Under the pieces are notes generated by a model. The model was not told the DNA's origin and did not search any database. It was given only the letters and a program-made list of their open reading frames with translations. The position numbers were made by a program, and so were the translations under genes. 64,000 nucleotides of DNA from Escherichia coli (GTDB lineage Bacteria; Pseudomonadota; Gammaproteobacteria; Enterobacterales; Enterobacteriaceae), in assembly GCF_013122565.1 (NCBI RefSeq), contig NZ_CP053258.1; one strand, written 5' to 3'. Positions 5,254 to 44,405 of this stretch are shown piece by piece (the first letter of the stretch is position 1; every line of letters begins with the position of its first letter).

Positions 5254-6288
5254 TCAGCCGTTGTCAGTGTCCAGTGAGTAGTTTTTAAAGCGGATGACCT
5301 CCTGACCGAGCCAGCCGTTTATCTCGCGGATCCTGTCCTGTAACGGGATAAGCTCATTGCGGACAAAGACCTTTGCCACTTTCTCAATATCTCCCAGTGA
5401 CCCGACGTTCTCCGGCTTGCCGCCCATCAACTGAAAGGGGATACGGTGCGCGTCCAGCAGGTCAGCGGCGCTGGCTTTTTTGATATTAAAAAAATCGTCC
5501 TTCGTTGCCACTTCACTGAGCGGGATAATTTTAATGCCGTCAGCTTTCCCCTGCGGGGCATAGAGAAACAGATTTTTAAAGTTGTTGCGGCCTTTCGACT
5601 TAACCATGTTTTCGCGAAGCATTTCGATATCGTTGCGATCCTGCACGGCATCGGTGACGTACATGATGTATCCGGCATGAGCGCCGTTTTCGTAATACTT
5701 GCGGCGGAACAGCGTGGCCGACTCATTCAGCCAGGCAGAGTTAAGGGCGCTGAGATATTCCGGCAGGCCGTACAGCTCCTGATTAATATCAGGCTCCAGC
5801 AGATGAAACACGGAGCCGGGCGCGAAAGGTGTCGGCTCGTTGAAGGACGGCACCCACCAGTAAACATCCTCCTCCACGCCACGGCGGGTATATTTTGCCG
5901 GTGAGGTTTCCAGTCTGATGATCTTACCGGTGGTGCTGTAACGCTTTTCCAGAAACGCATTACCGAACACCAGAAAATCCAGCACAAAGCGGCTGAAATC
6001 CTGTTGCGAAAGCCACGGATGCGGGATAAATGTCGAGGCCAGAATATTGCGTTTGACGTAAATCGGGGAGCTGTGATGCACGGCAGCACGCAGGCTTTTT
6101 GCCAGACCGGTAAAGCTGACCGGCGGCTCATACCATCTGCTGTTACTGATGCACTCGACGTAATCCAGAATGTCACGGCGGTCGAGTACCGGCACCGGTT
6201 CGCCAAAGGTGAATGCCTCCATTTTCGGGGCGCTGGCGGTGATTGTTTTTGCCGCAGGTTGCGGTGTTTTCCCTTTTTTCTTGCTCAT
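5254..6288 (-). CDS. Q: Portal protein
   Basis: 344 aa, identical in length to P2 gpQ; leftward-transcribed next to the terminase gene and adjacent to cos. Confidence 0.9.
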   Translation of the reverse strand: MSKKKGKTPQPAAKTITASAPKMEAFTFGEPVPVLDRRDILDYVECISNSRWYEPPVSFTGLAKSLRAAVHHSSPIYVKRNILASTFIPHPWLSQQDFSRFVLDFLVFGNAFLEKRYSTTGKIIRLETSPAKYTRRGVEEDVYWWVPSFNEPTPFAPGSVFHLLEPDINQELYGLPEYLSALNSAWLNESATLFRRKYYENGAHAGYIMYVTDAVQDRNDIEMLRENMVKSKGRNNFKNLFLYAPQGKADGIKIIPLSEVATKDDFFNIKKASAADLLDAHRIPFQLMGGKPENVGSLGDIEKVAKVFVRNELIPLQDRIREINGWLGQEVIRFKNYSLDTDNG

Positions 6289-14434: not shown

Positions 14435-14500
14435 TTGTGCCATTCCTGACACCTCATCGTCACATTGCCGCCGGTATGACCCGGCGGCATCCTTCCCGTT

Positions 14501-15136
14501 ATGAACACTCTCGCAAATATCCAGGAACTCGCGCGCGCACTGCGCAATATGATTCGCACCGGCCTTGTCGTCGAAACCGACCTTAACGCCGGTCGCTGCC
14601 GAGTGCAGACCGGCGGCATGTGCACTGACTGGCTTCAGTGGCTGACTCATCGCGCCGGGCGTTCGCGCACATGGTGGGCACCTTCCGTGGGGGAACAGGT
14701 GCTGATTCTGGCCGTGGGCGGTGAACTTGACACGGCGTTTGTTCTGCCGGGGATTTATTCCGGCGATAACCCCGCGCCGTCTGCGTCGGCGGATGCCCTG
14801 CATATCCGTTTCCCTGACGGGGCGGTGATTGAGTATGAACCCGAAACCAGTGCACTCACGGTAAGCGGAATTAAAACGGTCAGCGTGACGGCTTCTGATT
14901 CTGTTACTGCCACGGTGCCGGTGGTCATGGTGAAAGCGTCAACCCGCATCACCCTGGACACACCGGAGGTGGTCTGCACCAACAGGCTGATTACCGGCAC
15001 GCTGGAAGTGCAGAAGGGCGGGACGATGCGCGGCAACATTGAACACACCGGCGGTGAACTCTCATCAAACGGTAAGGTACTGCATACCCACAAACACCCC
15101 GGCGACAGCGGCGGCACAACCGGGAGTCCTTTATGA
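14501..15136 (+). CDS. V: Baseplate spike/central hub protein
   Basis: 211 aa, same length as P2 gpV; first gene of the V W J I H G operon. Confidence 0.85.
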   Translation: MNTLANIQELARALRNMIRTGLVVETDLNAGRCRVQTGGMCTDWLQWLTHRAGRSRTWWAPSVGEQVLILAVGGELDTAFVLPGIYSGDNPAPSASADALHIRFPDGAVIEYEPETSALTVSGIKTVSVTASDSVTATVPVVMVKASTRITLDTPEVVCTNRLITGTLEVQKGGTMRGNIEHTGGELSSNGKVLHTHKHPGDSGGTTGSPL

Positions 15137-16393: not shown

Positions 16394-16997
16394 TTCGCGA
16401 CTGCTGCCGACCGGCTCATCACCGCTTGAAGTCGCCGCCGCAAAAGCCTGTGCGGAAATTGAAAAAACGCCGGTCAGTATTCGTGAGCTGTGGAACCCGG
16501 ATACCTGTCCGGCAAATCTGCTGCCGTGGCTGGCGTGGTCATTTTCGGTTGACCGCTGGGATGATAAGTGGCCGGAAGCGACAAAACGCGCTGTTATCCG
16601 CGATGCGTATTTCATTCACTGCCATAAGGGCACTATAGGCGCAATCCGGCGTGTGGTGGAGCCGCTCGGCTATCTGATTGAGGTAAGGGAGTGGTGGCAG
16701 CTCAACGAGGAGCCGGGGACGTTCCGTATCGTTGTTGGTGTGCTTGAGCAGGGTATTACCGAGGAAATGTATCAGGAGCTGGAGCGCCTCGTTGCTGATG
16801 CAAAACCGGCAAGCCGCCATCTGACGGGACTGGCTATCAGCTTAAGTACAACCGGCAACATTTTTGCCGGTGCGGGATGCTATCACGGCGACGCCCTGAC
16901 GGTTTATCCCTACACCCCGGAGGCCATTATTGTCGGAGGGGATTATTTCCCGGCCTCGGCCATTCATTTAATTGATAACCTGAGAGTAAACGCATGA
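16386..16997 (+). CDS. I: Baseplate protein
   Basis: 203-aa ORF in the gpI position (P2 gpI is 176 aa, so the true start may be internal). Confidence 0.75.
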   Translation: MSDSRLLPTGSSPLEVAAAKACAEIEKTPVSIRELWNPDTCPANLLPWLAWSFSVDRWDDKWPEATKRAVIRDAYFIHCHKGTIGAIRRVVEPLGYLIEVREWWQLNEEPGTFRIVVGVLEQGITEEMYQELERLVADAKPASRHLTGLAISLSTTGNIFAGAGCYHGDALTVYPYTPEAIIVGGDYFPASAIHLIDNLRVNA

Positions 16998-18331
16998 CAG
17001 TGAAATACTACGCCATTCTGACTAATCAGGGCGCAGCACGGCTGGCTAACGCGACGATGCTCGGCAGTAAGCTGAATCTGACGCAAATGGCCGTTGGTGA
17101 TGCGAATGGTGTCTTGCCGACACCAGACCCGGCACAGACAAAACTGATTAACCAGAAACGCATCGCGCCGCTGAATCTTCTGAGTGTTGACCCGAACAAC
17201 CAGAGCCAGATTATTGCGGAGCAAATCATCCCTGAGAACGAGGGCGGATTCTGGATCCGTGAGATTGGGCTTTATGATGATGAAGGCGTACTCATTGCGG
17301 TGGCGAACTGCCCGGAAACGTACAAACCGCAGTTGCAGGAAGGCAGTGGTCGTACCCAGACTATCCGCATGATTCTGGTTGTCACGAATACCGAAGCTAT
17401 CACGCTGAAAATCGACCCGTCGGTGGTACTGGCGACCCGTAAATACGTGGATGATGAAGTCCTGGAATTAAGGCTGTATGTGGATGACCAGATGAGCAAA
17501 CACATTGCCGCACAGGACCCTCATACCCAGTATGCACAGAAACATAATCCGACATTTACCGGAGAACCAAAAGCGCCGACGCCTGCCGCAGGAAATAACA
17601 CCACGCGGATTGCGACCACTGAGTTTGTTCAGGCCGCTATTACCGCTCTGATTAACGGCGCGCCAGCCACGCTGGACACACTGAAAGAAATTGCCGCAGC
17701 CATTAACAATGACCCGAAATTCAGTACCACCATTAACAATGCGCTGTCAGGTAAGCAGCCACTGGATGAGACGCTGACGCATTTGAGCGGAAAGGATGTT
17801 GCCGGTCTTCTCGCATACCTTGGTTTGGGAGAAGGTTCGGCATTACCCGTTGGTGTGCCTGTTCCGTGGCCTTCAGCCACACCGCCTACTGGCTGGCTGA
17901 AATGCAACGGTGCGGCTTTTTCTGCTGAAGAATACCCGGAACTGGCAAAGGTTTATCCGACAAATAAATTGCCTGATTTACGCGGTGAATTTATTCGTGG
18001 CTGGGATGACGGGCGTGGAGTGGATAGCGGTCGTACTTTATTAACGAATCAAGAGCATGCAGTAATTTCTCATAATCATGGAATACCTACAAAAGTGGGG
18101 TCAGTTACTAATATCCCGTATGGAATAGAACAGGTTATATCTGATGAAACCATTTTTTCATCAGCAAAAACAGTTGGTGTGGATTACTGGTCTAACAGTG
18201 AAAGAGTTTTTACTTATACAACTGGTGGAAGAAATGGTGCTGAATCAGTGAGTTCACCTGATGCCTCCTCTTTAATTAAAGAAACCAGACCACGGAACCT
18301 GGCATTTGCGTATATCGTGAGGGCTGCATAA
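16994..18331 (+). CDS. H: Tail fibre protein: constant N-terminal part plus currently expressed variable C-terminal part
   Basis: 445 aa in the gpH position. A gix-like crossover site lies inside the gene at 17808..17833, so residues after about 277 belong to the invertible segment. Confidence 0.85.
   Translation: MTVKYYAILTNQGAARLANATMLGSKLNLTQMAVGDANGVLPTPDPAQTKLINQKRIAPLNLLSVDPNNQSQIIAEQIIPENEGGFWIREIGLYDDEGVLIAVANCPETYKPQLQEGSGRTQTIRMILVVTNTEAITLKIDPSVVLATRKYVDDEVLELRLYVDDQMSKHIAAQDPHTQYAQKHNPTFTGEPKAPTPAAGNNTTRIATTEFVQAAITALINGAPATLDTLKEIAAAINNDPKFSTTINNALSGKQPLDETLTHLSGKDVAGLLAYLGLGEGSALPVGVPVPWPSATPPTGWLKCNGAAFSAEEYPELAKVYPTNKLPDLRGEFIRGWDDGRGVDSGRTLLTNQEHAVISHNHGIPTKVGSVTNIPYGIEQVISDETIFSSAKTVGVDYWSNSERVFTYTTGGRNGAESVSSPDASSLIKETRPRNLAFAYIVRAA
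17808..17833. other. gix/hix-like invertase crossover site (left), inside H
   Basis: TTCTCGCATACC TT GGTTTGGGAGAA: 12-2-12 layout with the same half-site style as hixL from memory, and an inverted match to the right site. Confidence 0.6.
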
Positions 18332-18933
18332 TGGATTACGCCGTATTAAATAACGAGTTTATCGCCACCCAGGCAGGAAATATTACTGTTTATAACTATG
18401 ATGGTGAAACGCGTGAATATATTTCTACATCAACTGAATATCTCGCTGTCGGCGTCGGTATTCCGGCATGTTCTTGTTTGGATGCACCAGGTACACATAA
18501 AGCTGGTTATGCAATCTGTCGCTCTGTAGATTTAAATTCATGGGAATATGTGCCAGACCATCGCGGTGAAATCGTCTATAGCACCGAAACAGGAGAATCG
18601 AAAGAAATCACAGCTCCGGGTGATTATCCTGAAAATACAACCACTATCGCCCCGTTAACGCCATACGATGAATGGAATGGTGAGAAATGGGTGACAGATA
18701 CTGAGGCACAGCATAGTGCCGCAGTAGACGCGGCAGAAGCACAGCGCCAGTCGCTGATTGATGCTGCAATGGCTTCCATCAGTCTGATTCAACTGAAATT
18801 ACGGGCCGGGCGGAAGCTGACGCAGCCAGAAAACACCCGACTTAACGCCGTGCTGGATTACATTGACGCGGTGACGGCAACAGATACCAGCACCGCACCG
18901 GATGTCATCTGGCCTGAACTGCCGGAGGCGTAG
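18331..18933 (+). CDS. G: Tail fibre assembly chaperone (expressed orientation)
   Basis: 200 aa, gpG position; C-terminal motif TSTAPDVIWPELPE typical of tail fibre assembly proteins. Confidence 0.8.
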   Translation: MDYAVLNNEFIATQAGNITVYNYDGETREYISTSTEYLAVGVGIPACSCLDAPGTHKAGYAICRSVDLNSWEYVPDHRGEIVYSTETGESKEITAPGDYPENTTTIAPLTPYDEWNGEKWVTDTEAQHSAAVDAAEAQRQSLIDAAMASISLIQLKLRAGRKLTQPENTRLNAVLDYIDAVTATDTSTAPDVIWPELPEA

Positions 18934-19345
18934 GCCATTCAATATCTGGAGCACTGGAGGAATCAACCAGTTCCAGTGCGTCCAGATAATCTAGCCATAA
19001 ATTATATTGCGCCAGTTCCTCACCTTTCAGACGACCAATCGCCGCTTTACCAGGCCATTGCTTACTGTTTATGTATTCGTTGACCTGATTAATCAATTGC
19101 TGCTTTTCCAATTCGGCTGCGGCAATTTGTTCCTCATGAGTTGGCGGTGGAATATCAATCCATGCAGGCATTCCGTCGATGACACCTCTGTATTTTCCTT
19201 CTGGTGCTTCCTTCATAAATTCGGCGGCAACAGTGTCGTCAATTTCGATTCCATCATCGGGCCATTCGCCGGATTCCTGATAAGCGATTTTAAGCTCCAC
19301 AGGGAAAAACGCATTTTTATCGGCACTGAAAATATATTTCTGCAT
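18905..19345 (-). CDS. Alternative tail fibre assembly chaperone (G'), silent in this orientation
   Basis: 146 aa, convergent with G and overlapping its 3' end; C-terminal motif SSAPDIEWPTPP; lies inside the invertible segment. Confidence 0.75.
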   Translation of the reverse strand: MQKYIFSADKNAFFPVELKIAYQESGEWPDDGIEIDDTVAAEFMKEAPEGKYRGVIDGMPAWIDIPPPTHEEQIAAAELEKQQLINQVNEYINSKQWPGKAAIGRLKGEELAQYNLWLDYLDALELVDSSSAPDIEWPTPPAVQAR

Positions 19346-19347
19346 TT

Positions 19348-19746
19348 CTACCGTCCTATCGAAATATAACTGAATCTGTATTGCTGTGAGATATCACTGG
19401 TTGCCACACGCCACGCTGAATTACTGATATGTTCAAAATTTACAGACAAAACCTGCGGGGCAGGAATCGACGGGTCTGACTGAACGGCATCAGACATAAC
19501 ACTGACTGAAACCATCGGCTGATTAGGGAATGGTATAGGGAAGTGTCCACTGATAAAGCGGGTCGTGTTTCCTGAAAAAGTGCCAAACTGAACAATATAT
19601 CCACCTGGTAGCCTGAACCATCCCGAACCAGAAGCGAATGCTCCCATATCCGGTATCTGATTATCTCCTGTGCCCACATCCCTTTTCGCCGCTTCTCCCA
19701 AACCAACGTTTATGAAAATGCAGAGATAACGGGCAACTGGCATCAT
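19348..19746 (-). CDS. Alternative tail fibre C-terminal cassette (H'), expressed only after inversion by fusion to the constant part of H
   Basis: The minus-strand frame encodes GLGEAAKRDVGTGDNQ..., which is in frame with the GLGE of H across the shared 14-bp crossover sequence; the functional part is about 19348..19706. Confidence 0.7.
   Translation of the reverse strand: MMPVARYLCIFINVGLGEAAKRDVGTGDNQIPDMGAFASGSGWFRLPGGYIVQFGTFSGNTTRFISGHFPIPFPNQPMVSVSVMSDAVQSDPSIPAPQVLSVNFEHISNSAWRVATSDISQQYRFSYISIGR
19693..19718. other. gix/hix-like invertase crossover site (right), about 50 bp upstream of the invertase gene
   Basis: TTCTCCCAAACC AA CGTTTATGAAAA; its reverse complement shares TTGGTTTGGGAGAA with the left site. 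The sites bound an invertible segment of about 1.9 kb (17820..19706). Confidence 0.6.
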
Positions 19747-19767
19747 CTCCGGTTTTTATTCAGGGGG

Positions 19768-20367
19768 ATGCTCATGCTTATTGGCTATGTACGCGTGTCA
19801 ACAAATGACCAGAACACGGAATTGCAGCGTAACGCGCTGGAGTGCGCAGGATGCGAGCGGATTTTTGAGGATAAAATCAGCGGCACGAAGTCCGACCGAC
19901 CGGGACTGAAAAAACTGCTCAGAACATTATCAGCAGGTGACACTCTGGTAGTCTGGAAGCTGGACCGGCTGGGGCGTAGTATGCGGCATCTGGTCATTCT
20001 GGTTGAGGAGCTGCGCGAACGCGGCGTTAATTTTCGCAGCCTGACAGATGCTATTGATACCAGCACGCCGATGGGGCGTTTTTTCTTTCATGTGATGGGT
20101 GCCCTGGCTGAAATGGAGCGAGAACTCATTGTCGAGCGGACACGCGCCGGACTGGAAGCGGCCAGAGCCAAAGGGCGTATTGGTGGCAGACGTCCGAAGC
20201 TCACCGCGAGTGAGTGGGAACAGGCAGGACGGTTGCTGGCTGCGGGTGAATCACGTCAACGCGTGGCGCTGATTTTTGATATTGGCCTGTCCACGCTCTA
20301 TAAAAAATTCCCCTCATCAGCGGCAAAGAATAAATTGTGTCATCCCTTAGCCAACCGGGACAAATAG
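19768..20367 (+). CDS. Serine DNA invertase (Hin/Gin/Cin/Pin family)
   Basis: 199 aa; N-terminal catalytic motif GYVRVSTNDQ with the active-site serine; C-terminal helix-turn-helix; immediately next to the invertible tail-fibre segment. Confidence 0.85.
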   Translation: MLMLIGYVRVSTNDQNTELQRNALECAGCERIFEDKISGTKSDRPGLKKLLRTLSAGDTLVVWKLDRLGRSMRHLVILVEELRERGVNFRSLTDAIDTSTPMGRFFFHVMGALAEMERELIVERTRAGLEAARAKGRIGGRRPKLTASEWEQAGRLLAAGESRQRVALIFDIGLSTLYKKFPSSAAKNKLCHPLANRDK

Positions 20368-20426
20368 CCTGACATCTCCGGCACAACTGAAAATATCACT
20401 CACCCATTAACCACGGAGTTAAACGG

Positions 20427-21617
20427 ATGAGTGACTATCATCACGGCGTGCAGGTGCTGGAGATTAACGACGGCACCCGCGTCATTTCCACCGTATCCAC
20501 TGCCATTGTTGGCATGGTCTGCACGGCCAGCGATGCGGATGCGGAAACCTTCCCCCTCAATAAACCGGTGCTGATTACCAATGTGCAGAGCGCAATTGCA
20601 AAGGCCGGTAAAAAAGGCACGCTGGCGGCATCGTTGCAGGCCATCGCCGACCAGTCAAAACCGGTCACCGTTGTCGTGCGTGTGGAAGATGGCACCGGTG
20701 ACGACGAGGAAACGAAACTCGCGCAGACCGTTTCCAATATCATCGGCACCACCGACGAAAACGGTCAGTACACCGGACTGAAAGCCCTGCTGGCGGCGGA
20801 GTCGGTAACCGGTGTTAAACCGCGCATTCTCGGTGTGCCGGGACTGGACACCAAAGAGGTGGCTGTTGCACTGGCATCAGTCTGTCAGAAGCTGCGCGCT
20901 TTCGGGTATATCAGCGCATGGGGCTGTAAAACCATTTCCGAGGTGAAAGCCTACCGCCAGAATTTCAGCCAGCGTGAGCTGATGGTCATCTGGCCGGATT
21001 TCCTCGCATGGGATACGGTCACCAGTACCACCGCCACCGCGTATGCCACCGCCCGTGCGCTGGGTCTGCGCGCTAAAATCGACCAGGAGCAGGGCTGGCA
21101 TAAAACGCTGTCCAACGTTGGGGTGAACGGTGTTACCGGCATCAGCGCCTCTGTATTCTGGGATTTGCAGGAGTCCGGCACCGATGCTGACCTGCTTAAC
21201 GAGTCAGGCGTCACAACGCTGATTCGCCGTGACGGTTTCCGCTTCTGGGGTAACCGTACCTGCTCTGATGACCCGCTGTTCCTCTTTGAAAACTACACCC
21301 GCACCGCGCAGGTGCTGGCCGACACGATGGCTGAGGCGCACATGTGGGCGGTGGACAAGCCCATCACCGCAACGCTGATTCGCGACATCGTTGACGGCAT
21401 CAATGCCAAATTCCGTGAGCTGAAAACAAACGGCTATATCGTGGATGCGACCTGCTGGTTCAGCGAAGAATCCAACGATGCGGAAACCCTCAAGGCCGGA
21501 AAACTGTATATCGACTACGACTATACCCCGGTGCCTCCTCTCGAAAACCTGACCCTGCGCCAGCGTATTACCGATAAATACCTGGCAAATCTGGTCACTT
21601 CGGTTAACAGCAATTAA
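20427..21617 (+). CDS. FI: Tail sheath protein
   Basis: 396 aa, same as P2 gpFI. Confidence 0.9.
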   Translation: MSDYHHGVQVLEINDGTRVISTVSTAIVGMVCTASDADAETFPLNKPVLITNVQSAIAKAGKKGTLAASLQAIADQSKPVTVVVRVEDGTGDDEETKLAQTVSNIIGTTDENGQYTGLKALLAAESVTGVKPRILGVPGLDTKEVAVALASVCQKLRAFGYISAWGCKTISEVKAYRQNFSQRELMVIWPDFLAWDTVTSTTATAYATARALGLRAKIDQEQGWHKTLSNVGVNGVTGISASVFWDLQESGTDADLLNESGVTTLIRRDGFRFWGNRTCSDDPLFLFENYTRTAQVLADTMAEAHMWAVDKPITATLIRDIVDGINAKFRELKTNGYIVDATCWFSEESNDAETLKAGKLYIDYDYTPVPPLENLTLRQRITDKYLANLVTSVNSN

Positions 21618-21629
21618 GGAGCCTGACCG

Positions 21630-22148
21630 ATGGCAATGCCGCGCAAACTCAAGTTAATGAACGTCTTTCTGAACGGCTACAGCTATCAGGGCGTCGCGAA
21701 GTCCGTCACGCTACCAAAACTGACCCGTAAGCTCGAAAACTATCGCGGTGCGGGGATGAACGGCAGCGCACCGGTAGACCTCGGCCTTGATGACGATGCG
21801 CTGTCAATGGAGTGGTCGCTCGGTGGCTTCCCGGATTCGGTTATCTGGGAGCTTTACGCCGCAACCGGTGTGGATGCCGTACCGATTCGTTTTGCAGGTT
21901 CTTACCAGCGCGACGATACCGGCGAAACGGTGGCCGTCGAGGTGGTCATGCGTGGACGTCAGAAAGAAATCGACACCGGCGAGGGCAAACAGGGAGAAGA
22001 CACCGAGTCGAAAATCTCCGTGGTCTGCACCTATTTCCGGCTGACGATGGACGGTAAGGAGCTGGTCGAAATCGACACCATCAACATGATTGAGAAGGTG
22101 AACGGCGTCGACCGGCTGGAGCAACACCGCCGCAATATCGGCCTGTGA
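21630..22148 (+). CDS. FII: Tail tube protein
   Basis: 172 aa, same as P2 gpFII. Confidence 0.9.
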   Translation: MAMPRKLKLMNVFLNGYSYQGVAKSVTLPKLTRKLENYRGAGMNGSAPVDLGLDDDALSMEWSLGGFPDSVIWELYAATGVDAVPIRFAGSYQRDDTGETVAVEVVMRGRQKEIDTGEGKQGEDTESKISVVCTYFRLTMDGKELVEIDTINMIEKVNGVDRLEQHRRNIGL

Positions 22149-22204
22149 TTTTCATCCGGTCAGCCTGGCTGACCGGTTAACCCCGATTCAGAAGTGAGAA
22201 AACC

Positions 22205-22480
22205 ATGAACAAAGAAAACGTCATTACCCTGGACAATCCGGTCAAACGTGGTGAGCAGGTTATCGAACAGGTCACGCTGATGAAACCCAATGCCGGGACG
22301 CTGCGCGGTGTCAGTCTGGCTGCGGTCGCAAACTCCGAAGTCGATGCACTGATTAAAGTGCTGCCGCGCATGACGGCACCGATGCTGACCGAGCAGGAGG
22401 TCGCCGCGCTGGAACTGCCTGACCTTGTGGCGCTGGCCGGTAAGGTGGTCGGTTTTTTGTCGCCGAACTCGGTGCAGTGA
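22205..22480 (+). CDS. E: Tail assembly chaperone E
   Basis: 91 aa, same as P2 gpE; sits just before the tape measure gene. Confidence 0.85.
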   Translation: MNKENVITLDNPVKRGEQVIEQVTLMKPNAGTLRGVSLAAVANSEVDALIKVLPRMTAPMLTEQEVAALELPDLVALAGKVVGFLSPNSVQ

Positions 22481-22632
22481 CGTTTCCGAAAAATCTGTCG
22501 GTCGATGACCTGATGGCGGATGTGGCAGTGATATTTCACTGGCCGCCATCAGAACTGTATCCCATGAGCCTGACCGAACTCATCACATGGCGCGAAAAGG
22601 CGCTCCGGCGAAGCGGAAACACGAATGAGTAA
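22205..22632 (+). CDS. E+E': Tail assembly chaperone E+E', made by programmed -1 frameshift at the slippery heptamer T_TTT_TTG (22453..22459)
   Basis: The heptamer lies 7 codons before the E stop. The -1 frame then runs 57 codons to TAA at 22630..22632, overlapping the T start; the extension ends ...LTELITWREKALRRSGNTNE. Predicted fusion of about 142 aa, as in P2. Confidence 0.7.
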
Positions 22633-25072
22633 CAATGTAAAATTACAGGTATTGCTCAGGGCTGTTGACCAGGCATCCCGCCCGTTTAAATCCATCCGCA
22701 CAGCGAGCAAATCGCTGTCGGGGGATATCCGGGAAACACAAAAATCACTGCGCGAGCTGAACGGTCAGGCATCCCGTATTGAGGGATTTCGCAAGACAAG
22801 TGCACAGCTCGCCGTGACTGGTCATGCACTTGAAAAGGCTCGGCAGGAAGCCGAAGCCCTTGCCACACAGTTTAAAAACACCGAACGTCCGACCCGTGCT
22901 CAGGCGAAAGTGCTGGAATCCGCAAAGCGTGCGGCGGAGGACTTACAGGCGAAATATAACCGCCTGACGGATTCCGTTAAACGCCAGCAGCGGGAACTGG
23001 CCGCTGTGGGAATTAATACCCGCAATCTTGCACATGATGAGCAGGGACTGAAAAACCGTATCGGTGAAACCACTGCACAGCTTAACCGTCAGCGTGATGC
23101 GCTGGCGCGTGTCAGTGCGCAACAGGCAAAACTTAACGCAGTAAAACAGCGTTATCAGGCCGGAAAGGAACTGGCCGGAAATATGGCCTCAGTGGGCGCT
23201 GCCGGTGTGGGGATTGCGGCGGCGGGAACGATGGCCGGAGTTAAGCTGCTGATGCCCGGTTATGAGTTTGCGCAGAAAAACTCAGAATTACAGGCTGTGC
23301 TCGGAGTGGCAAAAGACTCCACCGAAATGGCCGCACTACGCAAACAGGCGCGTCAGCTTGGCGACAATACCGCCGCCTCGGCAGATGATGCAGCCGGTGC
23401 GCAGATTATTATTGCGAAAGCCGGTGGGGATGTTGATGCCATTCAGGCGGCAACGCCGGTCACGCTGAATATGGCGCTGGCGAACCGTCGCACGATGGAA
23501 GAAAACGCTGCCCTGCTGATGGGGATGAAATCCGCCTTTCAGCTTTCAAACGATAAGGTCGCTCATATCGGGGATGTTCTCTCCATGACGATGAACAAAA
23601 CCGCCGCCGATTTTGACGGTATGAGCGATGCGCTGACCTATGCTGCACCTGTGGCAAAAAATGCCGGTGTCAGCATTGAAGAAACCGCCGCAATGGTCGG
23701 AGCGCTGCATGATGCAAAAATCACAGGCTCAATGGCGGGGACGGGAAGCCGTGCCGTGTTAAGTCGCCTGCAGGCACCGACGGGAAAAGCATGGGATGCA
23801 CTCAAAGAGCTTGGCGTGAAAACCTCAGACAGTAAGGGAAACACCCGACCAGTATTTACCATTCTGAAAGAAATGCAGGCCAGTTTTGAGAAAAACCGGC
23901 TCGGTACTGCCCAGCAGGCTGAATACATGAAAACCATTTTCGGGGAGGAAGCCAGCTCAGCCGCCGCCGTGCTGATGACTGCCGCCTCAACCGGAAAGCT
24001 GGACAAACTGACCGCTGCGTTTAAAGCCTCAGACGGGAAGACCGCCGAGCTGGTAAATATCATGCAGGACAACCTCGGCGGTGACTTTAAGGAGTTTCAG
24101 TCCGCTTATGAGGCGGTGGGGACTGACCTGTTTGACCAGCAGGAAGGCGCACTGCGTAAGCTCACGCAGACGGCCACAAAGTATGTGTTAAAACTCGACG
24201 GCTGGATCCAGAAAAACAAATCACTGGCGTCAACCATCGGCATCATTGTCGGTGGTGCACTGGCACTGACTGGTGTCATCGGTGCCATTGGCCTCGTAGC
24301 CTGGCCGGTTATCACCGGCATCAATGCCATCATCGCGGCAGCAGGCGCAATGGGGGCAATCTTCACGACGGTTGGCAGTGCTGTTATGACGGCCATCGGG
24401 GCGATTAGCTGGCCGGTTGTGGCCGTGGTGGCCGCAATTGTCGCCGGGGCGTTGCTTATCCGTAAATACTGGGAGCCTGTCAGCGCATTCTTTGGCGGTG
24501 TGGTTGAAGGGCTGAAAGCGGCATTTGCGCCAGTGGGGGAACTGTTCACGCCACTTAAGCCGGTGTTTGACTGGCTGGGTGAAAAGTTACAGGCCGCGTG
24601 GCAGTGGTTTAAAAACCTGATTGCCCCGGTTAAAGCCACTCAGGACACCCTGAACAGTTGCCGTGACACGGGGGTCATGTTCGGGCAGGCACTGGCTGAC
24701 GCGCTGATGCTGCCGCTTAATGCGTTCAACAAACTGCGCAGCGGAATTGACTGGGTACTGGAAAAACTCGGTGTTATCAACAAAGAGTCAGACACACTTG
24801 ACCAGACCGCCGCCAGAACTCAAGCCGCCACGTATGGCAGCGGTGGTTATATTCCGGCGACCAGCTCTTATGCAGGCTATCAGGCTTATCAGCCGGTCAC
24901 GGCACCGGCTGGCCGCTCTTATGTGGACCAGAGTAAAAACGAATATCACATCAGCCTGACGGGTGGTACTGCGCCGGGGACACAGCTTGACCGCCAGTTA
25001 CAGGATGCGCTCGAAAAATACGAGCGGGATAAACGTGCGCGCGCCCGTGCCAGCATGATGCATGACGGTTAA
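22625..25072 (+). CDS. T: Tail tape measure protein
   Basis: 815 aa, same as P2 gpT; alanine/glycine-rich with hydrophobic central segments. Confidence 0.9.
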   Translation: MSNNVKLQVLLRAVDQASRPFKSIRTASKSLSGDIRETQKSLRELNGQASRIEGFRKTSAQLAVTGHALEKARQEAEALATQFKNTERPTRAQAKVLESAKRAAEDLQAKYNRLTDSVKRQQRELAAVGINTRNLAHDEQGLKNRIGETTAQLNRQRDALARVSAQQAKLNAVKQRYQAGKELAGNMASVGAAGVGIAAAGTMAGVKLLMPGYEFAQKNSELQAVLGVAKDSTEMAALRKQARQLGDNTAASADDAAGAQIIIAKAGGDVDAIQAATPVTLNMALANRRTMEENAALLMGMKSAFQLSNDKVAHIGDVLSMTMNKTAADFDGMSDALTYAAPVAKNAGVSIEETAAMVGALHDAKITGSMAGTGSRAVLSRLQAPTGKAWDALKELGVKTSDSKGNTRPVFTILKEMQASFEKNRLGTAQQAEYMKTIFGEEASSAAAVLMTAASTGKLDKLTAAFKASDGKTAELVNIMQDNLGGDFKEFQSAYEAVGTDLFDQQEGALRKLTQTATKYVLKLDGWIQKNKSLASTIGIIVGGALALTGVIGAIGLVAWPVITGINAIIAAAGAMGAIFTTVGSAVMTAIGAISWPVVAVVAAIVAGALLIRKYWEPVSAFFGGVVEGLKAAFAPVGELFTPLKPVFDWLGEKLQAAWQWFKNLIAPVKATQDTLNSCRDTGVMFGQALADALMLPLNAFNKLRSGIDWVLEKLGVINKESDTLDQTAARTQAATYGSGGYIPATSSYAGYQAYQPVTAPAGRSYVDQSKNEYHISLTGGTAPGTQLDRQLQDALEKYERDKRARARASMMHDG

Positions 25073-25086
25073 GGAGGTGACGAAAA

Positions 25087-25566
25087 ATGATGCTCGCGTT
25101 AGGTATGTTTGTTTTTATGCGCCAGACGCTGCCACACCAGACCATGCAGCGTGAATCAGATTATCGCTGGCCGTCAAATTCCCGTATCGGTAAACGGGAT
25201 GCCTTTCAGTTTCTCGGTGTTGGCGAGGAAAACATCACGCTTGCCGGTGTGCTTTATCCCGAACTGACCGGCGGAAAGCTGACGATGACCACGCTCAGGC
25301 TGATGGCAGAGGAAGGTCGGGCGTGGCCGTTGCTGGATGGCACTGGCATGATTTACGGCATGTATGTCATCAGCAGGGTGAGTGAAACAGGGAGTATTTT
25401 CTTTGCAGACGGCACACCCCGGAAAATTGATTTTACGCTGTCGCTCACCCGCGTTGATGAATCACTGGCCGCACTTTATGGCGATATCGGTAAACAGGCG
25501 GAATCGCTCATCGGTAAGGCTGGCAGTATGGCGACTAAATTCACGGGTATGACGGGGGCGGGATAA
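25087..25566 (+). CDS. U: Tail protein U
   Basis: 159 aa, same as P2 gpU. Confidence 0.85.
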   Translation: MMLALGMFVFMRQTLPHQTMQRESDYRWPSNSRIGKRDAFQFLGVGEENITLAGVLYPELTGGKLTMTTLRLMAEEGRAWPLLDGTGMIYGMYVISRVSETGSIFFADGTPRKIDFTLSLTRVDESLAALYGDIGKQAESLIGKAGSMATKFTGMTGAG

Positions 25567-26729
25567 TGCTGGATGCGCTGACATTTGATGCAGGCAGTAC
25601 ACTGACGCCGGATTACATGCTGATGCTCGACAGCAGGGATATTACCGGCAATATCAGCGACCGTCTGATGAGCATGACCCTGACGGATAACCGGGGCTTT
25701 GAGGCTGACCAGCTTGATATTGAACTGAACGACGCCGACGGGCAGGTAGGGCTACCGGTTCGTGGCGCTGTCCTGACGGTGTATATCGGCTGGAAAGGTT
25801 TTGCCCTGGTATGCAAAGGGAAATTTACCGTTGATGAGGTTGAACACCGGGGCGCACCGGATGTGGTCACCATCCGCGCCCGGAGTGCAGATTTTCGCGG
25901 GACGCTCAATTCCCGCCGGGAAGGCTCCTGGCATGACACCACGCTCGGTGCGATTGTTGAGGCGATAGCCACCCGTAACAGGCTGGAAGCCAGTGTCGCT
26001 CCGTCACTGGCCGGAATTAAAATCCCGCACATCGACCAGTCGCAGGAGTCCGATGTGAAATTCCTGACCCGTCTTGCTGAACGCAACGGCGGCGAGGTGT
26101 CGGTAAAAATGGGAAAACTGCTGTTTCTCAAAGCGGGGCAGGGGGTGACGGCCAGTGGTAAAAAAATCCCGCAGATCACCATCACCCGCAGCGACGGTGA
26201 CCGTCATCATTTTGCGATTGCTGACCGTGGAGCCTATACCGGCGTAACGGCAAAGTGGTTACACACCAAAGACCCGAAACCGCAAAAGCAGAAGGTAAAA
26301 CTGAAACGCAAAAAGAAAGAAAAACACCTGCGCGCACTGGAGCACCCGAAAGCGAAACCAGTCAGGCAGAAGAAAGCGCCAAAAGTACCGGAAGCGCGCG
26401 AAGGTGAATACATGGCCGGTGAGGCTGACAACGTTTTTGCCCTGACCACGGTATATGCCACGAAAGCGCAGGCCATGCGCGCCGCTCAGGCGAAGTGGGA
26501 CAAACTGCAACGGGGTGTGGCGGAGTTCTCCATCAGCCTGGCTACTGGTCGGGCAGATATTTACACGGAAACGCCGGTCAAAGTGTCAGGCTTTAAGCGC
26601 GTCATAGACGAGCAGGACTGGACAATCACTAAGGTGACACATTTTCTGAATAATAGCGGCTTCACGACGTCCTTAGAGCTTGAGGTAAGGCTTTCTGATG
26701 TGGAGTACGAAACCGAAGATGATGAGTGA
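25566..26729 (+). CDS. D: Tail protein D (late control gene D)
   Basis: 387 aa, same as P2 gpD; lysine-rich internal segment. Confidence 0.85.
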   Translation: MLDALTFDAGSTLTPDYMLMLDSRDITGNISDRLMSMTLTDNRGFEADQLDIELNDADGQVGLPVRGAVLTVYIGWKGFALVCKGKFTVDEVEHRGAPDVVTIRARSADFRGTLNSRREGSWHDTTLGAIVEAIATRNRLEASVAPSLAGIKIPHIDQSQESDVKFLTRLAERNGGEVSVKMGKLLFLKAGQGVTASGKKIPQITITRSDGDRHHFAIADRGAYTGVTAKWLHTKDPKPQKQKVKLKRKKKEKHLRALEHPKAKPVRQKKAPKVPEAREGEYMAGEADNVFALTTVYATKAQAMRAAQAKWDKLQRGVAEFSISLATGRADIYTETPVKVSGFKRVIDEQDWTITKVTHFLNNSGFTTSLELEVRLSDVEYETEDDE

Positions 26730-26811
26730 TGTGTTTTATTTTATCTGTTTGTTTTATAAGGATAAATTAACTAAAATGGCAACATCAACAAAACCGGAAG
26801 AGGTGCTCGCG

Positions 26812-27030
26812 ATGTTTCATTGTCCTTTATGCCAGCATGCCGCACATGCGCGTACAAGTCGCTATATCACTGACACGACAAAAGAGCGTTATCACCAGTG
26901 TCAGAACGTGAATTGCAGCGCCACGTTCATCACTTATGAGTCTGTACAGCGATACATTGTGAAGCCGGGAGAAGTCCACGCCGTGAGGCCGCACCCGTTG
27001 CCGTCAGGGCAGCAAATTATGTGGATGTAA
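26812..27030 (+). CDS. ogr: Ogr zinc-finger late-gene transcriptional activator
   Basis: Internal start MFHCPLCQHAAHAR gives 72 aa as for P2 Ogr; CxxC...CxxxxC zinc-finger cysteines; last phage gene before att. Confidence 0.85.
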   Translation: MFHCPLCQHAAHARTSRYITDTTKERYHQCQNVNCSATFITYESVQRYIVKPGEVHAVRPHPLPSGQQIMWM

Positions 27031-27043
27031 TTACAAACAGAAA

Positions 27044-27068
27044 GCCCCTCAGTCGAGGGGCTTTTTTT
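27044..27068 (+). terminator. Rho-independent terminator after ogr
   Basis: GCCCCTC-AGTC-GAGGGGC hairpin followed by a run of seven T, 14 nt past the ogr stop. Confidence 0.7.
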
Positions 27069-27132
27069 GTCGATGTGGTCAATGTGTGGACGTGACCAGA
27101 AATAAATCCTTTTATTTCAATTTGTTGTACGT

Positions 27133-27159
27133 AAAAAATAAGCCCGTGTAAGGGAGATT
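27133..27159. other. Prophage attR core (P2 att core)
   Basis: AAAAAATAAGCCCGTGTAAGGGAGATT, the 27-nt P2 attP/attB core from memory; it coincides with the 3' end of cyaR and marks the prophage/host junction. Confidence 0.55.
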
Positions 27160-27219
27160 ACACAGGCTAAGGAGGTGGTTCCTGGTACAGCTAGCATTTT
27201 ATGGGTTATGTTTTTCAGC
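27133..27219 (-). ncRNA. cyaR: CyaR (RyeE) Hfq-dependent sRNA
   Basis: Minus-strand sequence GCUGAAAAACAUAACCCAUAAAAUGCUAGCUGUACCAGGAACCACCUCCUUAGCCUGUGUAAUCUCCCUUACACGGGCUUAUUUUUU (87 nt) matches CyaR from memory, including the terminator hairpin; position between yegQ and ogr as in K-12. Confidence 0.75.
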
Positions 27220-27253
27220 GAAACGGATGATAACCTTAATAAATGCAGCTGTA

Positions 27254-27269
27254 TGTGATCGGTTTCTAA
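27254..27269. promoter_or_regulatory. Candidate CRP site of the cyaR promoter (class II position)
   Basis: TGTGA-N6-TCTAA centred about 42 bp upstream of the inferred CyaR 5' end; CyaR is known to be CRP-cAMP activated; the second half-site is weak. Confidence 0.35.
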
Positions 27270-27303
27270 GAATTTTCCATCCGGGAAAAATAATCGAAAT
27301 TAA

Positions 27304-28665
27304 TCACTTACCGTGGGGGTTACGCGTGGTTTCCCCGGAGAAATTACGCATCAGCAGCGCGTAATTCAGTTCAAGATCCTGCGGTACCGGGATCCAAACA
27401 GTATAACCATCGCCAGGTGCGACCGGCATAGCTTCACCTTTGGCGTTTTCCATGTGCTCAAGGGTAAAGTTAATGTTGCCTTGCGGCGTCATCAGCTCGA
27501 GGCTGTCGCCAACGGAGAATTTATTTTTCACCGCTACCGCCGCGAGGTCCCCCTTGCGCTCACCGGTAAACTCACCAACAAACTGCTGGCGGTCAGAAAC
27601 CGAATAACCGTATTCGTAGTTCTGATAATCGTCGTGAGTATGACGACGCAGGAAACCTTCGGTATAGCCACGATGCGCCAGACCTTCCAGAGTTTCCAGC
27701 AGGCTGGTATCGAACGGTTTGCCCGCAGCGGCATCATCGATAGCTTTGCGATAAACCTGCGCGGTGCGTGCGCAATAGTAGAAAGATTTGGTACGGCCTT
27801 CGATTTTCAGCGAATGCACGCCCATTTTGGTCAGGCGTTCAACATGGGCGATGGCGCGCAGATCTTTCGAGTTCATGATGTAAGTGCCGTGCTCATCTTC
27901 AAACGCGGTCATATACTCGCCCGGACGCTGGGCTTCTTCGATCATAAACACTTTGTCGGTTGGCGCGCCGATACCCAGCGTCGGCTCAACATTTTGCACC
28001 GGAATCGGCTCGTACTTGTGTACGATGTTGCCAACGTCATCTTCTTTCCCTTCCTGGACGTTGTACTCCCAGCGGCAGGCGTTGGTGCAGGTACCCTGGT
28101 TCGGGTCGCGCTTGTTGATATAGCCAGAGAGCAGGCAGCGACCGGAGTAGGCCATGCACAGTGCGCCGTGAACGAAGATCTCGATCTCCATATCCGGCAC
28201 CTGATTGCGGATCTCTTCAATCTCTTCCAGCGACAGCTCGCGAGAGAGGATCACGCGGGTCAGGCCCATTTGCTGCCAGAATTTCACCGTCGCCCAGTTT
28301 ACGGCGTTAGCCTGCACCGAGAGGTGGATCGGCATTTCAGGGAAGTGCTCACGCACCAGCATAATCAACCCCGGATCGGACATAATCAGCGCATCCGGCC
28401 CCATCTCCACCACCGGTTTCAGGTCACGGATAAAGGTTTTCAGCTTGGCGTTGTGCGGGGCAATGTTGACCACGACATAAAACTTTTTCCCCAGCGCGTG
28501 GGCTTCATTGATGCCGAGCTGAAGATTTTCGTGGTTGAATTCGTTGTTGCGCACACGCAGGGAGTAACGCGGCTGGCCCGCATAAACAGCATCTGCGCCA
28601 TAAGCGAAAGCGTAACGCATATTTTTCAGCGTTCCCGCCGGGGAAAGGAGTTCCGGTTTAAACAT
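27304..28665 (-). CDS. yegQ: U32-family peptidase-like protein YegQ
   Basis: 453 aa, same length as K-12 YegQ; conserved position next to cyaR. Confidence 0.9.
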   Translation of the reverse strand: MFKPELLSPAGTLKNMRYAFAYGADAVYAGQPRYSLRVRNNEFNHENLQLGINEAHALGKKFYVVVNIAPHNAKLKTFIRDLKPVVEMGPDALIMSDPGLIMLVREHFPEMPIHLSVQANAVNWATVKFWQQMGLTRVILSRELSLEEIEEIRNQVPDMEIEIFVHGALCMAYSGRCLLSGYINKRDPNQGTCTNACRWEYNVQEGKEDDVGNIVHKYEPIPVQNVEPTLGIGAPTDKVFMIEEAQRPGEYMTAFEDEHGTYIMNSKDLRAIAHVERLTKMGVHSLKIEGRTKSFYYCARTAQVYRKAIDDAAAGKPFDTSLLETLEGLAHRGYTEGFLRRHTHDDYQNYEYGYSVSDRQQFVGEFTGERKGDLAAVAVKNKFSVGDSLELMTPQGNINFTLEHMENAKGEAMPVAPGDGYTVWIPVPQDLELNYALLMRNFSGETTRNPHGK

Positions 28666-28767: not shown

Positions 28768-29064
28768 TTAGCTCCAGTGTAAATGTCTGGTGGCGTCCTG
28801 GTTTTGGTTAAGGATACGAATGACGATAATTTCCCCTGGTGATTGCAGGAAATAAATTACGTGGCGTTCAAAAGGAAGAACAAAAATACCTTCGCCTAAT
28901 TCAGGTCTGGGCGTACCTATATTATTGTTACTCAGAATCTGGAGAACGTCTGAAAGATGTTCCACATATCTGTCGGCTTGTGGTTCGCCGAAATGGTGAT
29001 AACTGTAATACCAGATGCCTTCTAAATCCTCATTGGCTTTTGGCATGAGTTTAATAATACGCAC
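28768..29064 (-). CDS. ParE/RelE-family type II toxin
   Basis: 98 aa; pattern ...GEGIFVLPFERHVIYFLQSPGEIIVIRILNQNQD typical of ParE toxins; starts one base after the antitoxin stop. Confidence 0.7.
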   Translation of the reverse strand: MRIIKLMPKANEDLEGIWYYSYHHFGEPQADRYVEHLSDVLQILSNNNIGTPRPELGEGIFVLPFERHVIYFLQSPGEIIVIRILNQNQDATRHLHWS

Positions 29065-29065
29065 A

Positions 29066-29317
29066 TTATTTCCTTATCCCTGCTTTCACCTTCCGTAAAA
29101 ACGCGTCCTTTTCCCACGGCTGAGCTTCACCACTACTCAACCCTTCTGCAAGCATGTCACGTAATGCTTGCAGGCGAGACTCTGCTTGCTTTTCTCGAAG
29201 TAAGCGCAGTGACTCACGGATCACTTCGCTTTGGGTGCGATAGTCGCCGGATTCAATTAAGGACTCGATAAATTCACGCAACTCATCGCCGAGATCAACC
29301 GTCATCGTTCTGGCCAT
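29066..29317 (-). CDS. ParD-like ribbon-helix-helix antitoxin
   Basis: Start chosen at MARTMTVDLGDELREFIESL (83 aa); small acidic RHH-like protein immediately upstream of the toxin; the track ORF extends to 29413. Confidence 0.65.
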   Translation of the reverse strand: MARTMTVDLGDELREFIESLIESGDYRTQSEVIRESLRLLREKQAESRLQALRDMLAEGLSSGEAQPWEKDAFLRKVKAGIRK

Positions 29318-29562
29318 TTTACGTCCGCCTGTAAGTAAAAATCTTACATCAGTGTATTTCATAAAACGCATAGCGTCACGAAAGTATTGGAAGATATTTT
29401 GGCATATGAACATGTTCAGGAGGGGATGGTAAACAAAGAAAGCACAACGAGTGCTCGTCAGTGCCCACTATTTTAATGGCGGAGGTTAATCTTAATTATC
29501 AATAACTAAGCGTTATTTTGATATAAAGCCGGACGCCAACAAACCCACGCCCGGCATCGTAA

Positions 29563-42924: not shown

Positions 42925-43682
42925 GCTGGCGTCTGGTCTATGCATCAACCGTTGGAACGTCGCACATCAGCGCGGACTTGCCTTGCCAGGATGCCTGCCA
43001 GATGCAGGTTGCCTGGTTAAATGACCAGCAGCCATTATTGTCGGTATTTGTCGCTGATGGCGCAGGCAGTGTCTCGCAGGGTGGCGAAGGCGCGATGCTT
43101 GCCATCAATGAAGCGATGGCTTATGTGTCGCAAAAAGTGCAGCACGGTGAATTTGGACTCAATGATATCCTCGCCACGGATATTGTGCTGACCGTTCGTC
43201 AGCGACTTTTTGCCGAGGCGGAAGCCAAAGAATTAGCAGTTCGCGATTTTGCCTGCACGTTTCTGGGATTGATTTCATCGGCTAACGGCACCTTGATTAT
43301 GCAGATTGGCGATGGCGGCGTGGTGGTGGATTTTGGTCACGGTCTGCAATTACCGCTTACGCCGATGGTGGGTGAATATGCCAATATGACGCATTTCATT
43401 ACCGATGAAGATGCCGTTTCCAGACTGGAAACTTTCACCATCACTGAGCGTGTGCATAAAGTTGCAGCATTTACGGACGGTATCCAGCGACTGGCGTTAA
43501 ATATGTTGGATAATTCTCCGCATGTGCCTTTCTTTACCCCGTTTTTCAATGGACTGGCGTCAGCAACGCAGGAACAACTCGATTTATTACCTGAATTGTT
43601 AAAGCAGTTTTTGTCCAGCCCGGCGGTAAACGAGCGTACGGATGATGATAAAACGTTGGCACTGGCGCTGTGGGCAGAGTGA
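42921..43682 (+). CDS. pphC: PP2C-family Ser/Thr protein phosphatase PphC (YegK)
   Basis: 253 aa, start overlaps the yegL stop; matches K-12 PphC length and position. Confidence 0.85.
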
Positions 43683-43746
43683 GTTTCTCATGGCGGTTGA
43701 AGACAACAATTCAACCGCCAGTTTAAGCAATCAATATAACGGCTGA

Positions 43747-44208
43747 TTAGCGAACTAATTTTGCTCTTAGCTCGTCGGCTTCTTCTTTTGGATAGGTGAC
43801 CAATAAAGGATCAATGGTATAACCGCCGTAAATTTTATCCCCGCGCGTATACATCCAGTCTGAAATATCTTCTTTCTTGATTTTCCACTCCTGGCCATAT
43901 TCTACGTTTGTAACAATACCAGGGTCATTGCTGATTACGCCAATAAACATGCCGTTAGAATAAGTGACATCCGTAAGCCAGAAATGCTCGGTTCTTCCGT
44001 GATCGGTTATCGGGGCTTTGACTGCGAAAGTATCGGCATCTTTTTTATTCATAACCTCGATGAATTTATCGGTTTCTTTCCGCGCATGTTTAATCGCGTC
44101 AGACATCGCTTGTTTATCATAACCTCCTGTCACTAACGTATCCGAAACTTCACAATAGCCTGCGGTAGTAAAACATAGCAGGCTCAACATGAGTAATATC
44201 TTTTTCAT
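43747..44208 (-). CDS. yegJ: Secreted DUF2314-type protein YegJ
   Basis: 153 aa with N-terminal signal peptide (MKKILLMLSLLCFTTAGYC); same length as K-12 YegJ. Confidence 0.85.
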   Translation of the reverse strand: MKKILLMLSLLCFTTAGYCEVSDTLVTGGYDKQAMSDAIKHARKETDKFIEVMNKKDADTFAVKAPITDHGRTEHFWLTDVTYSNGMFIGVISNDPGIVTNVEYGQEWKIKKEDISDWMYTRGDKIYGGYTIDPLLVTYPKEEADELRAKLVR

Positions 44209-44405
44209 TTTTTCTCCAGAATCTCTGTGTAGTAAAAGTTAGCAAAACCTGTGGAAGTTAATCATTATCAGGTTGGAATTGAATTGTATCCTGATGAAAT
44301 TACATTATCATTTTTATTCTTGAGTGGGCTCTTCCCATATAGAAATAATTATAATGGGCAGTGTTATTATTCATTGAAATATAATATTACTGCCCTTGAA
44401 ACATT

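Follow-up and report, generated by a model that had tools for sequence, protein, structure and literature searches.

A predicted gpE/gpE+E' -1 ribosomal frameshift site in a P2-like prophage of Escherichia coli

The window that we analysed, a stretch of Escherichia coli DNA of 64,000 nucleotides, carries phage tail genes in the order sheath FI, tube FII, E/E', tape measure T, U and D, which is the order found in phage P2. Gene E and its -1 frame extension E' occupy the interval between the tube and tape measure genes (Table 1). Counted in codons from the E start at 22205, the 0 frame reads GGT (22451), TTT (22454) and TTG (22457) at the slippery heptamer. After TTG, E encodes six more residues (S P N S V Q) before the TGA at 22478-22480. 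This stop is the seventh codon past TTG, and the heptamer T_TTT_TTG therefore lies 7 codons ahead of the E stop and in the correct phase, as the initial annotation of this DNA had proposed.

The same annotation held that the -1 frame is open for 57 codons past the heptamer, which can be read directly from the sequence: from 22459 the frame is VAELGAVTFPKNLSVDDLMADVAVIFHWPPSELYPMSLTELITWREKALRRSGNTNE, with 57 codons followed by TAA at 22630-22632. On the 5' side, a TAA at 22441-22443 closes the -1 frame six codons before the re-entry point at 22459, so that this frame can be entered solely at or after the heptamer. The predicted fusion E+E' is join(22205..22459, 22459..22632) and has 142 aa. 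At the other end of the extension, the ATG of T at 22625 is 3 nt ahead of the E' stop, and the E' and T frames share 8 nt (ATGAGTAA); the overlap of the E' TAA with the tape measure start that had been described thus holds for the two reading frames, whereas the TAA itself is clear of the start codon.

Table 1. Positions of the features of the E/E' locus, of further ORFs with a similar arrangement in the window, and of the heptamers in related phages
Feature	Position	Strand	Basis or remark
Gene FII, tail tube, neighbour 5' of E	21630..22148	+	Pfam Phage_tube, E 2.3e-60
Gene E (0 frame), tail assembly chaperone gpE, 91 aa	22205..22480	+	ORF, Pfam, PHROG
Candidate stimulator, SD-like AGGTG (extended form AAGGTGGT, 22442-22449)	22443..22447	+	definition of Sharma et al. 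2014
Slippery heptamer T_TTT_TTG, X_XXY_YYZ phase of E	22453..22459	+	sequence; identical in P2
E' extension, -1 frame, 57 codons and TAA	22459..22632	+	Pfam PF06528, PHROG 1756
Strong hairpin in the E' core, 10-bp stem CUGAUGGCGG/CCGCCAUCAG and 6-bp inner stem	22510..22552	+	-24.8 kcal/mol
Gene T, tape measure, 815 aa	22625..25072	+	Pfam PhageMin_Tail, E 1.8e-45
Remaining ORFs with the XXXYYYZ arrangement	27942-28220; 48122-48442		
Heptamer T_TTT_TTG in relatives			11 of 14 further lineages (12 of 15 with the window)
Heptamer A_AAT_TTT, Shae_phiSM	L014, about 952-958		
Heptamer G_GGA_AAG, Mannheimia phage 2256AP1	L015, about 982-988		other place in the linker
Heptamer T_TTT_TTC, Aeromonas phage 3			

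Taken by itself, a heptamer followed by an open -1 frame is only weakly diagnostic. TTTTTTG occurs eight times on the + strand of the window, and an in-phase XXXYYYZ within the last 40 codons together with a long open -1 frame was present in 5 of the window's 168 mechanical ORFs with a length of 80 aa or more. The four ORFs other than E all overlap a longer open frame, and for the two of these four that were checked, 26-310 and 5427-5726, the longer frame is a real gene. The case for a frameshift rests on homology and on the conservation of the site.

The region is nearly identical to phage P2. Across 551 bases around the site, 74 phage records match at 95% identity or more, with bacteriophage P2 at 98.4%. 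In a base-by-base alignment with P2 (AF063097), 454 of 461 columns are identical and none of the seven differences lies within 40 bases of the heptamer; one of them changes an amino acid in E (S29 in P2, N29 here) and the other six are synonymous. The GenBank record of P2 annotates gpE, a joined gpE+E' CDS and a 'site of -1 translational frameshift', and the last of these features maps to window position 22460, the base directly 3' of the heptamer. Of E+E' the record says 'shares amino terminus with gpE; -1 frameshift; essential tail protein'. An exact-sequence look-up showed that the curated P2 fusion (AAD03292.1, NP_046780.1, UniProt O64312 'Tail assembly protein E'') equals the predicted fusion save for S29N, and the junction ...GKVVGFL-VAELGAV... 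is the same in the prediction and in O64312.

Profile searches placed both parts of the predicted fusion in tail protein families. E matches Pfam PF10109 (Phage_TAC_7, tail assembly chaperones; E 2.6e-12) and the E' extension matches PF06528 (Phage_P2_GpE; E 2e-22), each over the gathering score, while the corresponding PHROG families are 103 for E ('tail protein', E 2.6e-45) and 1756 for E' (a tail family, E 1.4e-28). NCBIfam gave no match for E or for the fusion, and a PDB sequence search found no relative and no solved structure of one.

Christie, Temple, Bartlett and Goodwin (J Bacteriol 184:6522) are said to have described the P2 site experimentally in 2002. The abstract of that work reportedly states that E' is essential by complementation and that the fusion is made at roughly 10%; for P2, the fusion junction peptide and the loss of E' function on synonymous destruction of the heptamer are likewise said to have been reported. 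P2 shifts at TTTTTTG to produce the 91-aa E and the 142-aa E+E' (PMC3091744). The locus shares with the P2-type gpE/gpE+E' pair of the Peduoviridae its homology, the phase of the heptamer, a startless -1 ORF and synteny. From the sequence we consider it very probable that the locus is the gpE/gpE+E' programmed -1 ribosomal frameshift of a P2-like (Peduovirus) prophage. The E/E+E' frameshift is then already known as phage P2's own and is ordinary here. For P2, whose site and flanking bases are identical to those here, the GenBank notes and a review state that the fusion is made and is essential for tail assembly.

The arrangement extends to much more distant phages. A tblastn search with gpE retrieved 406 phage records, down to about 32% identity, from which we took 14 further lineages at 30-73% identity (Peduoviridae and beyond), making 15 with the window; their hosts include Escherichia, Enterobacter, Klebsiella, Salmonella, Citrobacter, Burkholderia, Ralstonia, Pseudomonas, Acidovorax, Aeromonas and Mannheimia. 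Each of the 14 has an X_XXY_YYZ in phase close to the 3' end of E, followed by a -1 frame without stops through the E' core, with its conserved motif D-L-M-A-D-I-A-V-I-F-H-W...E-L..W-R-E.A..R-S-G. Both the position and the identity of the heptamer vary across the lineages (Table 1). A scan of IMG/VR, seeded with a five-sequence alignment, returned 80 loci, all at 70-100% identity. E' lies in the -1 frame behind an in-phase heptamer in every one of the 80 (78 TTTTTTG, one TTTTTTC and one TTTTTTA), and an in-frame E-E' fusion was found in none of them. An in-phase heptamer and a -1 extension with the E' domain are thus present in 94 of 94 related loci (14 lineages and 80 from IMG/VR), and conservation of the heptamer site among Peduoviridae homologues has been noted before (PMC3091744). 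The relatives' heptamers, together with the identity to P2 and its annotation, the Pfam matches and the synteny, uphold the initial reading of the locus as a conserved E+E' tail-chaperone -1 frameshift.

Codon usage around the heptamer suggests that more than the protein sequence is under constraint. GGT TTT TTG is kept in phages of Burkholderia, Ralstonia and Pseudomonas whose E genes have a GC3 of 0.84-0.97; these high-GC3 genes contain no TTT codon outside the heptamer and few TTG codons. In the tail operon of the window, TTG accounts for 6 of 184 Leu codons. Because GGT TTT TTG persists in high-GC3 E genes in which TTT and TTG are rare, the comparison indicates that selection at the site acts on the nucleotides, beyond the encoded Phe-Leu.

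A fusion of E and E' could also arise during transcription, if RNA polymerase slipped on the six T and an extra U joined the two frames in some transcripts. The site is indeed a homopolymer of this length, and an inserted U would give GFF-VAEL, a sequence present in two 142-aa NCBI proteins (RJK13013.1 and QTN08932.1), though both come from DNA assemblies. Slippage by E. coli RNA polymerase becomes appreciable at runs of roughly 8-9 A/T, and six is shorter. Moreover, relatives retain the X_XXY_YYZ pattern and its phase without a homopolymer, as G_GGA_AAG in the Mannheimia phage and A_AAT_TTT in Shae_phiSM, and in all 94 related loci the heptamer keeps its phase with respect to E. This conserved phase argues against polymerase slippage, since phase matters to the re-pairing of tRNAs and is irrelevant to the polymerase. 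With a run of only T6, and with pattern and phase conserved where the homopolymer is not, transcriptional slippage was rejected as the main route and appears highly improbable.

RJK13013.1 and QTN08932.1, both from E. coli, have E and E' in one frame, as expected from a run of seven T in the DNA. Errors in sequencing the homopolymer could account for them, or they could be genuine mutants that make the fusion constitutively.

E' could alternatively be a small gene of its own, read without any frameshift from the GTG at 22477 (51 aa) or from the ATG at 22513 (39 aa). PGAP calls a CDS of its own, 'GpE family phage tail protein', over the interval corresponding to 22477-22632, the exact 51-aa sequence is found on about 1,000 or more contigs, several phage records carry a short separate E' ORF, and the 39-aa product of the ATG matches the core of Pfam PF06528. 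However, pairing with the 3' tail of 16S rRNA amounts to -2.3 kcal/mol for the GTG and -2.4 kcal/mol for the ATG, compared with -5 to -13.4 kcal/mol for E, FII, U and D. The GTG start is missing from phages 186 and ENT4, and RSY1, Alfacinha1 and the Mannheimia phage are without ATG, GTG or TTG at or before the E' core. The -1 frame, on the other hand, is open from the heptamer to the E' core in 15 of 15 lineages, in the enteric lineages a stop a few codons 5' of the heptamer closes it so that entry occurs only at the site, and the P2 record gives E+E' the same N-terminus as gpE. Having no usable SD sequence, and starts that are absent or unconserved in relatives, independent initiation of E' was rejected and deserves virtually no credence.

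Under programmed -1 ribosomal frameshifting, most ribosomes on E would pass the heptamer and end at the TGA at 22478 to give the 91-aa gpE. A minority would pause with tRNA-Phe on UUU (22454-56) in the P site and tRNA-Leu on UUG (22457-59) in the A site. Tandem -1 slippage of both tRNAs would place them on UUU UUU, decoding would resume with GTC at 22459, and 57 further codons in the -1 frame would yield the 142-aa gpE+E'. Tandem slippage, with the junction GFL-V, is the best-supported model, and it is favoured by giving the junction recorded for P2. Slippage of the P-site tRNA alone, with an empty A site, would give the junction GFF-V; the sequence is compatible with either. The tryptic peptide spanning the junction is predicted to be VVGFLVAELGAVTFPK after tandem slippage and VVGFFVAELGAVTFPK after P-site-only slippage or insertion of a U.

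The role of the two products can be sketched from other phages, the chaperone frameshift having reportedly been generalised to long-tailed phages by Xu et al. in 2004. gpE and gpE+E' would have the N-terminal chaperone domain in common, and by analogy with lambda gpG/gpGT this shared domain would coat the tape measure gpT. The E' domain, which only some of the molecules carry, would recruit the tube protein, whereupon the tail would polymerise around the tape measure, and the frameshift would set the ratio of gpE to gpE+E'. In lambda, the tape measure is bound by the domain common to gpG and gpGT and the tail-tube subunit by the part encoded past the frameshift, and the proportion of the two products is important (PMC5009743). 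We infer from this analogy that the partners in P2 are gpT for the shared domain and FII for E', and neither chaperone product would be expected in the virion. Because the P2 tail is contractile and the lambda-type tail is non-contractile, E' would here act on the FII tube of a tube-plus-sheath tail.

The stop codon of E' overlaps the beginning of T or directly adjoins it in most of the 15 lineages (as ATGA, ATGAGTAA or TAAATG), and the SD sequence of T is weak (-3.5 kcal/mol). Given this overlap and the weak SD sequence, we speculate that translation of T could be coupled to the frameshifted ribosomes.

The 60 nt on the 3' side of the heptamer fold no better than shuffled sequences (z 0.11), folding yielded no hairpin 4-10 nt downstream, an Rfam scan of 22100-22800 gave no match (best E 0.31), and no 3' stimulatory structure has been reported for the P2 site (PMC3091744). 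The locus accordingly falls outside the IS3/IS911/dnaX-type class of -1 frameshifts with a stimulator in the 3' structure. A nearby 3' stimulatory structure was rejected, as none was found within the 60 nt and the strong hairpin is 51 nt off.

This hairpin starts 51 nt downstream of the shift site, in the E' core (Table 1), which is too far for a conventional stimulator, and the 100-nt region around it has a z of -3.0. Among 57 unique enteric segments its pairs are retained in 93-100%, save for the innermost one at 79%, with one-sided wobble changes only, and the predicted fold of the segment differs in the 11 more distant lineages.

A candidate stimulator lies upstream, where the 3' end of the SD-like AGGTG is 6 nt from the second base of the heptamer. 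The criteria for SD-like stimulators give an experimentally validated spacing of 6-17 nt (Sharma et al., 2014; PMC4066793), and by sequence AGGTG fits this definition with a spacing at the short edge of the range. The same study measured all 64 heptamers in E. coli and found U_UUU_UUG outside the most efficient bacterial motifs, its lower efficiency being due to an A-site tRNA that is unable to re-pair cognately (PMC4066793). The P2-type shift is reported to be 2-3 fold more efficient than that of lambda G-T (PMC5009743). Since U_UUU_UUG is not among the top heptamers and there is no hairpin at 4-10 nt, the efficiency in P2 is unexplained by the heptamer alone.

A qualifying SD-like motif is present in 12 of the 15 diverse lineages, against 6.4 expected from synonymous-codon resampling; the Poisson-binomial P is about 3e-4 if the lineages are taken as independent, though they are related. 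The same resampling gave an expectation of 15.7 for the 43 unique upstream contexts, 38 of which have the motif, and the base rate of SD-like motifs at arbitrary codon positions is 10-16%. The motif takes the form AGGUG in enteric phages and GAGG or GGAG in others, 6-9 nt ahead of the P-site codon. Among 69 unique segments of the enteric clade, codon -3 is GTG in all 69, with neighbouring codons varying freely, and codon -4 ends in G in 67 (AAG in 62, AAA in 2). The AAA:AAG ratio in the tail operon of the window is 93:34, opposite to the preference at codon -4. AGGTG therefore appears to be conserved at the nucleotide level beyond what the amino acids require, with relatedness and the conserved E/K-V dipeptide as confounders.

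It is conceivable, though rather doubtful, that the shift in the P2 family depends on this SD-like element, which would compensate for the only moderate slipperiness of U_UUU_UUG in E. coli and for the absent 3' structure and would explain the 2-3 fold difference from lambda. If true, this would account for how the much-cited P2 frameshift reaches its efficiency. The literature that we covered, to which the primary P2 paper did not belong, contained nothing on the efficiency of U_UUU_UUG or on an SD element at the P2 site; as a stimulator, the AGGTG element is possibly a new detail for this classic site.

The E/E+E' site offers nothing new to biology. The practical value of the locus lies in annotation. 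In the RefSeq/PGAP annotation of the closest genome, E' stands as a gene of 51 aa that starts at GTG, named 'GpE family phage tail protein', and ribosomal slippage is not noted (L017 22078-22233). The interval 22481..22624, which had been described as unannotated, is thus covered there by the CDS equivalent to 22477-22632. Repeated on about 1,000 or more contigs, the stand-alone E' CDS suggests that a known recoding site is being mis-annotated systematically. The correct product, the join given above, should bear ribosomal_slippage and replace the separate 51-aa gene. In RSY1 (L007 649-1119), annotators took the long open -1 frame (ORF30) as the gene in place of E.

When P2 is mapped to the window, the window begins inside prophage gene A. 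The homology runs as far as 27159, where the attP core ends, and this right end of the prophage lies by yegQ (about 27159-28660). Some part of 20400-27200 is matched by 5423 of 5426 complete E. coli genomes, and 1564 of them carry 80% or more of the interval. The near-universal partial match may reflect the ogrK/D remnant of K-12 strains at the yegQ-side site.

Several segments of the prophage depart from P2. The gene at 2516-4735 (- strand) encodes a 739-aa AAA_13 ATPase (Pfam, E 2e-102) whose best match is the PADLOC candidate defence system PDC-S06 (E 4e-253) and whose C-terminus is similar to the PrrC anticodon nuclease (E 2.5e-14). Its GC content is about 29%, compared with about 56% for the prophage, and it fills the orf91/tin/old slot that P2 has between gene A and cos. 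The gene is probably anti-phage cargo. A segment at 16823-20346 stands in place of the C-terminus of P2 H, G and fun(Z). It includes a serine invertase (19768-20367; Resolvase and HTH_7) and, in opposite orientation on the - strand, a tail-fibre C-terminus (19348-19746) and a tail-fibre assembly gene (18905-19345), and 27-nt inverted repeats at 17808-17834 and 19692-19718 flank the segment. This is likely to be an invertible host-range segment. P2 orf30 (P2 9439-10224) is absent at 14436-14501, where the homologues of S and V are about 65 bp apart.

Beyond the prophage, about 790 bp at 43674-44461 are not in the closest genome (NZ_OZ197100). They contain a 153-aa gene with a predicted signal-like N-terminus (43747-44208, - strand), flanked by the 9-bp direct repeat TGAAGACAA at 43698 and 44407. 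An IS element was rejected for this segment, as what it holds is an ordinary 153-aa gene. Beside yegQ in the closest genome, the ParD antitoxin next to a RelE/ParE toxin is annotated as a frameshifted pseudogene (L017 28665-28962, about 29064-29361 in the window).

Among known recoding sites, E. coli dnaX and IS911 (Larsen, 1994; Prere, 2011) resemble the locus in having an SD-like sequence 5' of the heptamer within 6-17 nt. They differ in that the spacing of 6 nt here is at the short extreme and no 3' hairpin accompanies it at 4-10 nt, and the role of the element as a stimulator is that of a candidate. The organisation of the locus is that of the lambda G/GT-type class (Levin, 1993; Xu, Hendrix and Duda, 2004, 2013, 2014), with two overlapping ORFs between the major tail or tube gene and the tape measure gene, linked by a -1 slip late in the first ORF that yields a minor, C-terminally extended product at a fixed ratio. 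In contrast to this shared plan, there is no sequence similarity to lambda, whose heptamer is G_GGA_AAG and which shifts about 1 time in 30.

Among the Peduoviridae homologues, phage 186 orf51/orf52 (gene H), phiCTX orf24/24.5, the Burkholderia phages KS5, KS14 and KL3, and Carl1 have the same heptamer, phase and E' domain, whereas their protein identity is 30-73% and they vary in the linker that joins the heptamer to the E' core as well as in how far the E stop lies from the heptamer (8-24 codons). P2 itself agrees with the locus in the heptamer, its phase, the product lengths of 91 and 142 aa, the E' sequence, the 8 nt shared with T and the genes on either side. Apart from the seven base differences, the prophage departs from P2 elsewhere, in the old/tin slot, the tail-fibre/invertase region and orf30.
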